Positions 1 to 3,000 of a stretch of 20,633 nucleotides of DNA are shown here, one piece after another (position 1 is the first letter of the stretch; every line of letters starts with the position of its first letter). The stretch is taken from the IMG/VR virus record IMGVR_UViG_2529293039_000014; one strand, written 5' to 3'. The stretch comes from a virus (lineage: Duplodnaviria > Heunggongvirae > Uroviricota > Caudoviricetes). The position numbers were made by a program.

Positions 1-3000
1 ATGAAACACCGGACCTGGATCACTGAAGCTTTACGTCTTCACTTTGAAGAACATTTACCCCGGGTTGTGGCCGGGCGTCGCCTGGGTGTACCAAAATCAA
101 CAGTTTGTAGTATGTTCGTGCGCTTTCGGAGAGCTGGCCTTTCGTGGCCTTTGCCCGCAGGCATGTCGGAGCAGGAACTTGATGCCTGCCTTTACGGACA
201 ATTTTCCACGGTACCAGTCGTACGTCCTGAAAGCACCGTTATATCCGAAGCCCCCGTGGTAAAAAAACGTCCCCGGCGGCCCAACTTCCCTTATGAGTTT
301 AAAATCGCCTTAGTGGAGCAGTCACTGCAGCCCGGAGCCTGTGTGGCGCAGATCGCCCGGGAAAACGGAATCAACGATAACCTGCTCTTCAACTGGCGCC
401 ATCAATACCGGAAAGGTGGCCTGCTGCCTTCCGGAAAAAATATGCCGGCACTGCTTCCCGTGACGTTAACGCCGGAGCCGGATAATAAAATCCCGGCCCC
501 CGCACAGGAACCAGAGCAGATAAATACACCGTCCGACAGTCTGTGTTGTGAGCTGGTTCTGCCGGCCGGAACTCTCAGGCTTAAAGGTAAACTGACGCCG
601 GCGTTATTACAGACACTTATCCGCGAAATAAAAGGGAGCAGCCACTGATGATATCTCTCCCTGCAGGTTCGCGTATCTGGCTGGTTGCAGGTATCACCGA
701 TATGCGAAATGGCTTTAACGGCCTGGCATCAAAAGTTCAGAACGTCCTGAAGGATGACCCGTTCTCCGGACACCTGTTCATCTTCCGCGGACGCCGGGGT
801 GACCAGATAAAAGTGTTGTGGGCTGACAGTGACGGACTGTGCCTCTTCACCAAACGCCTGGAGCGGGGCCGCTTCGTCTGGCCAGTCACCCGTGACGGCA
901 AGGTGCACCTTACTCCGGCTCAGTTATCCATGCTTCTTGAAGGTATCAACTGGAAGCACCCGAAACGAACGGAACGCGCTGGAATCCGCATATAACCCGT
1001 TGTAAAGTGAGGATATGGACACCTCACTTGCTCATGAGAACGCCCGCCTGCGGGCACTGTTGCAGACGCAACAGGACACCATCCGCCAGATGGCTGAATA
1101 CAACCGCCTGCTCTCACAGCGGGTGGCGGCTTATGCTTCCGAAATCAACCGGCTGAAGGCGCTGGTTGCGAAACTGCAACGTATGCAGTTCGGTAAAAGC
1201 TCAGAAAAACTTCGTGCAAAAACCGAACGGCAGATACAGGAAGCACAGGAGCGAATCAGCGCACTTCAGGAAGAAATGGCGGAAACGCTGGGTGAGCAAT
1301 ATGACCCGGTACTGCCATCCGCCCTGCGCCAGTCTTCAGCCCGTAAACCGTTACCGGCCTCACTTCCCCGTGAAACCCGGGTTATCCGGCCGGAAGAGGA
1401 ATGCTGTCCTGCCTGTGGTGGTGAACTCAGTTCTCTGGGATGTGATGTGTCAGAGCAACTGGAGCTTATCAGCAGCGCCTTTAAGGTTATCGAAACACAA
1501 CGTCCGAAACAGGCCTGTTGCCGGTGCGACCATATCGTGCAGGCACCAGTACCTTCAAAACCCATTGCACGCAGTTATGCCGGAGCGGGGCTTCTGGCCC
1601 ATGTTGTCACCGGGAAATATGCAGACCATCTGCCGTTATACCGCCAGTCAGAAATATACCGTCGTCAGGGCGTGGAGCTGAGCCGTGCCACACTGGGGCG
1701 CTGGACAGGTGCTGTTGCTGAACTGCTGGAGCCGCTGTATGACGTCCTGCGCCAGTATGTGCTGATGCCCGGTAAAGTCCATGCTGATGATATCCCCGTC
1801 CCGGTCCAGGAGCCGGGCAGCGGTAAAACCCGGACAGCCCGGCTGTGGGTCTACGTCCGTGATGACCGTAACGCCGGTTCACAGATGCCCCCGGCGGTCT
1901 GGTTCGCGTACAGTCCGGACCGGAAAGGTATCCATCCACAAAATCACCTGGCCGGTTACAGCGGTGTGCTTCAGGCCGATGCTTACGGTGGTTACCGGGC
2001 GTTATACGAATCCGGCAGAATAACGGAAGCCGCGTGTATGGCTCATGCCCGGAGAAAAATCCACGATGTGCATGCAAGAGCGCCCACCTACATCACCACG
2101 GAAGCCCTGCAGCGTATCGGTGAACTGTATGCCATCGAGGCAGAGGTCCGGTGCTGTTCAGCAGAACAGCGTCTGGCGGCAAGAAAAGCCAGAGCCGCGC
2201 CACTGATGCAGTCACTGTATGACTGGATACAGCAACAGATGAAAACACTGTCGCGTCACTCAGATACGGCAAAAGCGTTCGCATACCTGCTGAAACAGTG
2301 GGATGCACTGAACGTGTACTGCAGTAATGGCTGGGTGGAAATCGACAACAACATCGCAGAGAACGCCTTACGGGGAGTGGCCGTAGGCCGGAAAAACTGG
2401 ATGTTCGCGGGTTCCGACAGCGGTGGTGAACATGCGGCGGTGTTGTACTCGCTGATCGGCACATGCCGTCTGAACAATGTGGAGCCAGAAAAGTGGCTGC
2501 GTTACGTCATTGAACATATCCAGGACTGGCCGGCAAACCGGGTACGCGATCTGTTGCCCTGGAAAGTTGATCTGAGCTCTCAGTAAATATCAATACGGTT
2601 CTGACGAGTCGCTTACCGCTTTTTCTCCGCAGTGATAATGCCGCTGCAGTGCGGGCAAAGTAGATACGCCGCCTCACTGGCTTTAAAGGGATCCGGTTCA
2701 TTACGGTAGCCGGTCATGGCATCCATGGCTGGCTGAAAATATTCACCGCAGTGCGGACATGGCCAGTACCAGCGGCGGCGGTCACCACGATTGTAAAGGG
2801 AAAGAATACCAGTCGTCGGTGGCGCTTCATGAGGCGACTTACGTCGCCATTTGCTGTCGCAGATGTCACGTCCCGGCGAGCTCTCCACCAGAGTCATCCC
2901 GGAGGACATAAATGTGGTGGTACGTTTTGAGGCCAGGGAGAAACCATCACCCTCGCTGTCGATATTCTCCGGAAAACGGTCGTAATCGGTTAAGGCGACA

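Follow-up and report, generated by a model that had tools for sequence, protein, structure and literature searches.

Most of an ISCro1 element, an insertion sequence (IS) of the IS66 family, fills the first 2,616 nucleotides of the 20,633-nt stretch of Caudoviricetes DNA analysed here (IMG/VR record IMGVR_UViG_2529293039_000014; "the window" denotes this whole stretch), where it abuts, within codon 295, the gene for a large terminase subunit (terL) of the lambda gpA type. The favoured reading, held at a probability of roughly 93%, is that ISCro1 transposed into terL of a lambdoid Escherichia coli prophage. The features that bear on this reading are as follows.

1 to 2616, plus strand: part of ISCro1 (IS66 family), corresponding to positions 84-2699 of the 2,699-bp element
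1 to 648, plus strand: tnpA, IS66 accessory protein, 215-residue version (Pfam HTH_Tnp_1, E 7.6e-15)
648 to 995, plus strand: tnpB, IS66 Orf2-like accessory protein, 115 residues (Pfam TnpB_IS66, E 4.7e-40)
1015 to 2586, plus strand: tnpC, DDE transposase, 523 residues (Pfam DDE_Tnp_IS66, E 3.7e-103, plus zf-IS66, LZ_Tnp_IS66 and IS66_C)
2591 to 2616, plus strand: right terminal inverted repeat of ISCro1, GTAAGCGACTCGTCAGAACCGTATTG when read inward, which provides the TAA stop (2615-2613) of the cut terminase reading frame
2617 to 2624, no strand assigned: predicted right-hand copy of an 8-bp target-site duplication, CGCTTTTT, expected from the duplications at 6 of 6 other copies
2613 to 3500, minus strand: large terminase gene (gpA type), cut, residues 1-295 of 699 (Pfam GpA_ATPase, E 4.9e-80, residues 40-294, profile positions 2-238 of 247)
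3509 to 4036, minus strand: small terminase subunit gene, DUF1441 family, 175 residues, intact (Pfam DUF1441, E 1.9e-44; phrog_141 "terminase small subunit", E 7.9e-65)

Across the junction, the minus strand reads ...GCG GAG AAA AAG CG/G TAA GCG ACT CGT CAG... (the slash marks the boundary between phage and IS), with the translation ...LCPHCSGIITAEKKR followed by the stop. Codon 295 (CGG) spans the boundary, drawing two bases from the phage and one from the IS, and still specifies the arginine that is encoded by CGT in the intact gene, and the TAA at 2615-2613 lies within the IS terminal GTAAGCG. The open reading frame (ORF) runs from 3500 to 2613 and homology switches at 2616/2617, in agreement with the original prediction, made from the sequence alone, that a gpA-like frame on the minus strand meets an IS66 terminus at 2616 and takes its stop codon from the IS end. 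The break point could be placed from both sides. When the junction was searched by megablast in 5,426 complete E. coli genomes, matches to intact terminase genes began exactly at 2617, at 100% identity, and the match to other ISCro1 copies stops at 2616/2617. A five-way alignment shows that the sequence CGCTTTTTCTCC... is common to the window and the intact gene, with the preceding base being C in the former versus A in the latter. A shared CGCTTTTT with a different base in front of it in each of the two sequences fixes the break between 2616, the last base of the IS, and 2617, from which phage DNA continues.

The left block, predicted to be an IS66 element, was identified as such by its Pfam domains and by its close identity to named copies. 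It carries three consecutive genes, tnpA, tnpB and tnpC, the last of which encodes a DDE transposase (Pfam E values 7.6e-15 to 3.7e-103), and the tnpA stop overlaps the tnpB start (TGATG); the 215-residue version of tnpA is also annotated in strain NB4833. The same tnpA-tnpB-tnpC layout is found in classic IS66 members, and the terminal inverted repeats of other members begin GTAAGCG... and GTAACCG... (PMC12888890). Imperfect terminal inverted repeats with 5'-GTAA are likewise present here. The sequence 3' of the tnpC stop reads ...CAGTAAATATCAATACGGTTCTGACGAGTCGCTTAC, with its last base at 2616, and the right inverted repeat ends ...GAGTCGCTTAC, such that the right end of the IS in the window reads GTAAGCGACTCG... 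from the terminus. The left end in complete ISCro1 copies reads GTAACCGGCTC..., and their left repeat, GTAACCGGCTCATTTAAACCGTCTGG, agrees with the right repeat at 18 of 26 positions. The 83 bp of ISCro1 that fall outside the window comprise the left inverted repeat (GTAACCGGCTCATTT...) and the first 10 codons of the 225-residue tnpA annotation. Window positions 1-2616 differ from three complete 2,699-bp copies (L022, L029 and L002) by 2-11 mismatches in 2,616 nt (99.6-99.9% identity), and the name ISCro1 is used here after the RefSeq/PGAP "ISCro1 family" labels that these copies bear ("IS66-like element ISCro1 family transposase"). With 2,616 of 2,699 bp in the window, no structural difference from ISCro1 was seen in either the gene order or the GTAAGCG/GTAACCG starts of the repeats.

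Six complete ISCro1 copies at other loci are all 2,699 bp long, all have the same ...CGCTTAC end as the IS in the window, and are all flanked by 8-bp direct repeats (CTGGCTTT, ATTCAGAA, CACCAATA, GGCTTTTT, GATTCTTC and GGTATTTC). The intact terminase gene holds a single CGCTTTTT at the insertion site. A T-rich 3' end is seen in five of the seven ISCro1 target sites (CGCTTTTT, CTGGCTTT, GGCTTTTT, GATTCTTC and GGTATTTC), which may reflect a weak target preference. The element was originally named from Citrobacter rodentium ICC168; with 24 copies, it is the IS that has expanded most in that strain (PMC3072379). E. coli genomes often contain several matching places, up to 34 in one genome. Among species-representative genomes, the exact 36-nt right end of ISCro1 was matched only in two contigs that had been placed in metagenome-assembled genomes labelled "Clostridiales bacterium", L029 (SFGJ01000083.1) and L028 (SFEB01000082.1), one of which consists of the 2,699-bp ISCro1 alone, with 3 mismatches to the window over 2,616 nt; both are probably mis-binned enterobacterial contigs.

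On the phage side of the junction, the cut gene encodes a Walker A motif (GPARTGKT) at residues 72-79, in keeping with its N-terminal GpA_ATPase match, and its product is identical to residues 1-295 of gp02 of phage cdtI at 294 of 295 positions. In that intact homologue of 699 residues, GpA_ATPase spans residues 40-303 and GpA_nuclease residues 325-643, whereas a Pfam search of the 295-residue product gave no match to GpA_nuclease. The interrupted codon is number 295 of the 699, which places the insertion 8 residues short of the end (303) of the ATPase-domain match and N-terminal to the nuclease domain; the product consists of exactly the native residues 1-295, with no foreign tail. The terL of the window is therefore a fragment of a gpA family member, not a functional member, and the predicted remnant of about 295 N-terminal codons from a terminase of more than 600 residues corresponds to 295 residues of a 699-residue intact form. 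Directly upstream of terL lies the small subunit gene, the exact product of which is widespread, a look-up of it having yielded only unrelated intact prophages; on the portal side, the window shows the IS instead. Intact relatives have the gene order small subunit, 699-residue terminase, 70-residue protein, portal. Phages cdtI (NC_009514) and Tritos resemble the window in having a DUF1441 small subunit gene upstream and in their 99.2% nucleotide identity to positions 2617-4065 (1,449 bp); the difference from cdtI gp02 is that the gene in the window stops at residue 295 of 699 and that the nuclease domain and C terminus are absent from the window.

An uninterrupted counterpart was found through a look-up of a 310-residue protein encoded nearby in the window. 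The contig concerned, AIEV01000038.1 from the E. coli DECA collection (L018), is 99.96% identical to the window over positions 2617-9421 (6.8 kb) and 99.93% identical over 10519-18570, and it is, by this identity, the same prophage with an uninterrupted terL. Its terL encodes 699 residues and is followed by a 70-residue gene and then the portal gene; the fragment in the window matches this 699-codon gene at 884 of 884 nt. The two prophages differ across the primase/helicase junction, where L018 is without about 1.1 kb (window 9422-10518; L018 9894/9871): the L018 helicase has 464 residues versus 552 in the window, and the 322-residue primase is absent from L018. An intact terminase is thus combined with a damaged replication module in L018, and the reverse is seen in the prophage of the window.

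Two alternatives would leave terL untouched by transposition. IS elements are a classic source of mis-joins, and reads of an IS copy located elsewhere might have been misjoined to an intact terminase gene during assembly. Against such a chimera, the identical junction is present in the independently assembled Logan contig SRR490664_602 (reported for 5 samples), which matches window positions 2587-4228 at 1642 of 1642 nt and ends 30 nt into the IS; in an exact protein look-up, the 295-residue product was found only on Logan contigs of less than 2 kb that end 30 nt into the IS. The join also coincides with the base at which six other copies end, the canonical IS terminus, and a random mis-join would seldom strike it. 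With the same join in independent read assemblies and both of its sides matching known sequences at 99.6-100% identity along stretches of hundreds to thousands of bases, the junction is very unlikely to be an assembly artefact.

Even less probable is a naturally short terminase, that is, a stand-alone ATPase subunit with the IS merely downstream. The original prediction had allowed that the end of the frame at 2613 might be the natural C terminus of a short variant, or that the adjoining sequence might match no IS66-family terminus. Positions 2591-2616 do match such a terminus, and the identical DNA continues to 699 residues in L018 and cdtI. That the truncation falls near the boundary between the ATPase and nuclease domains and adds no foreign residues would suit a natural variant, but the same DNA runs in frame for 404 further codons in L018 and phage cdtI, and the stop codon of the 295-residue ORF is itself IS sequence. 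The cluster at 90% identity that holds the 699-residue intact form has 2,610 members; the corresponding cluster with the 295-residue fragment has 371, all of them N-terminal pieces of the terminase. Among the members listed for the latter, four have foreign tails, after native residues 265, 324, 346 and 366, and the others end in native sequence, most being labelled "partial" by their source. One 633-residue member of the full-length cluster breaks after residue 627. A natural 295-residue terminase is ruled out by the empty-site comparison with L018 and cdtI.

Transposition into terL leaves two arrangements to be weighed on the far side of the IS. A simple insertion, in which CGCTTTTT was duplicated and the remaining 404 codons of terL follow the IS closely, is the probable one, because all six complete ISCro1 copies have target duplications and because distal terL lies directly beyond the IS in a group of enterotoxigenic E. 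coli (ETEC) strains with a comparable insertion, discussed below. It predicts a left junction of ...GAGCTCACGCTTTTT/GTAACCGGCTC..., with ...ATTGAGCTCACGCTTTTT upstream of the left end of the IS, a left repeat that reads ...GAGCCGGTTAC outward, and ...ACTATTGAGCTCACGCTTTTT as the preceding sequence on the plus strand. To a gene caller, the distal part would offer ORFs starting at TTG-304 (with AGGAG before it), ATG-330 and ATG-381. Several points weigh against this account or against the event as a whole. The left IS end, the second copy of CGCTTTTT and the distal terL codons all lie outside the window. Neither IMG/VR nor the JGI metagenomes contained a match to the right junction or to the predicted left junction, and the right junction was also absent from complete E. 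coli genomes and GTDB species representatives. No exact match to the predicted distal fragments (396, 370 and 319 residues, from the L018 sequence) was found in a collection of 15 billion proteins, and the same was true of the variants with the cdtI and NB4833 sequences. Lastly, the loss of packaging proposed below is deduced from domain content. The exact look-up does work as a method, since the equivalent distal fragments of the ETEC insertion were retrieved as a positive control, the 396-residue form on 14 contigs and the 370-residue form on 3. The missing matches give a mild hint that distal terL is absent or different; one changed residue, or a short-read contig broken within the gene, would also leave the look-up empty.

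A possible, although less favoured, arrangement is that the IS borders a deletion or rearrangement, in which an adjacent deletion or ISCro1-ISCro1 recombination removed distal terL, possibly together with head and tail genes, to leave a remnant that ends at the IS. The failure to find the predicted distal fragments when their ETEC counterparts are present in the collection speaks for it, as do the frequency of several ISCro1 copies in E. coli genomes and the frameshift in the integrase gene (see below), which suggests a decaying prophage. Position 1 of the window is the ATG of the 215-residue tnpA annotation, 83 bp inside the IS, and position 20633 is the integrase stop. Because of these two limits, the window was apparently cut at gene boundaries and not at a contig end. 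Such limits would suit a prophage prediction that ends at the IS; if the window is such a prediction, its end there would be a hint that phage structural genes do not continue beyond. The edges may also be no more than a tiling convention. Against a deletion, all six complete ISCro1 copies have intact 8-bp duplications and so are simple insertions, the IS of the comparable ETEC terL insertion is directly followed by the distal gene and the head genes, and the absence from an exact look-up can be explained by one amino acid difference or by fragmented short-read contigs.

The insertion point lies between 2616 and 2617, in codon 295, and the upstream part of terL now terminates at the TAA within the GTAA of the IS end. 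Relative to the late operon of the phage, the IS genes are in antisense orientation. The insertion appears to be very recent, because the terL fragment is identical to the gene of the sister prophage over its whole length and the IS is only 2-11 nt from other copies. The fragment is predicted to keep the ATPase domain without the cos-cutting nuclease domain and the prohead-binding C-terminal end. In lambda gpA, an endonuclease centre cuts cos, and the extreme C terminus docks on the prohead. With both the nuclease domain and the C terminus gone, the fragment should support neither concatemer maturation nor prohead docking, and the prophage would presumably be unable to mature and package its own DNA. 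Any late genes (portal, head and tail) that survive downstream of terL would be placed behind 2.7 kb of foreign DNA. A co-resident prophage with a matching terminase could still allow packaging in trans. For annotation, the value of this result is that the prophage can be recorded as packaging-defective and its terL as a pseudogene split or truncated by ISCro1; estimates of the spread of cargo by the prophage should then hinge on helper phages.

The remainder of the window has the following content.

Right of terL, minus strand: small terminase subunit, ORF11CD3-domain gene, Rz, lysozyme and P21-type holin
Further right, minus strand: Q-type antiterminator, 285-residue protein of unknown function, toprim primase, DEAD-box helicase and Cro-like gene
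Plus strand: CI-like repressor (HTH and Peptidase_S24), early-left genes and integrase

The early region is similar to that of prophages of the Shiga toxin 2f (Stx2f) type, with no stx genes in the window, and the integration site of relatives adjoins mlrA. Between the holin and Q antiterminator genes, on the opposite (plus) strand, positions 6513-7684 contain overlapping ORFs of 310 and 80 residues, in the slot where Stx phages carry stx. Neither had a Pfam or PADLOC match; the 310-residue protein matches phrog_7003 (unknown function) and occurs on only 7 contigs of a public gene-position collection. The integrase gene (19348-20633) is split into an ORF of 126 residues (Arm-DNA-bind_2) and one of 290 residues (Phage_integrase) by a 1-bp deletion in an A-run at about 19706-19712, which has seven A residues versus eight in the intact 428-residue integrase gene of E. 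coli CE10; the latter is otherwise 99.9% identical and adjoins mlrA. The frameshift may be a genuine second lesion that inactivates the prophage, or it may be a sequencing error in the homopolymer.

Interruption of terminase genes by IS elements is a known kind of event, and IS-driven prophage decay is well documented in E. coli; truncated alleles of the same terminase are frequent in the species. The present case is one further example of such decay and raises no new question. The closest parallel is found in ETEC strains 120899, 103605, 204446, 504237 and ETEC-2265, in which ISCro1 has entered the same terminase gene at a site 58 bp distant, with the target-site duplication CTGGCTTT (equivalent to window 2667-2674). 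In strain 120899 (L002), the repeats at the insertion site are located at 3461-3468 and 6168-6175. In these strains, the IS is directly followed by the rest of terL and by the portal and capsid genes, and both halves of terL are annotated as pseudogene fragments. The IS, its orientation and the gene are the same as in the window, whereas the ETEC insertion is 58 bp nearer the N-terminal part and belongs to another prophage with other lysis genes and a terL that is 97.4% identical; because the site and the prophage are different, it is an independent event. In related prophages, ISCro1 is also found in the portal gene (strain 16843) and upstream of the small subunit gene, in the cos-proximal spacer (avian pathogenic E. 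coli E12049 and NB4833). Two independent insertions 58 bp apart, in the same orientation and in different prophages, could suggest that codons ~273-295 of terL are a preferred ISCro1 site, or that terminase knock-outs are selected as a form of domestication that keeps lysogenic-conversion genes and blocks spread, but both ideas are considered quite improbable. A hot spot for insertion in terL is unsupported, since other alleles break after residues 265, 324, 346, 366 and 627 and ISCro1 is also present in the portal gene and the cos-proximal spacer; the shared orientation is partly an artefact of a search that joins same-strand pieces.

A lambdoid prophage of E. coli O157:H7 Sakai, Sp4, provides the comparison that bears on function. 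Its small-subunit gene, nu1, is disrupted by an IS. Sp4 DNA was found packaged all the same, and the packaging is most likely due to the terminase of Sp14, through a cos site that is nearly identical (PMC2669165). The original claim that the prophage of the window cannot package DNA would accordingly hold for self-packaging, as judged from domain content, but it does not stand as an absolute, given that the IS-disrupted Sp4 was packaged (PMC2669165). Both cases concern a lambdoid prophage whose packaging enzyme is inactivated by an IS; they differ in that the small subunit was hit in Sp4 and the large subunit in the window.

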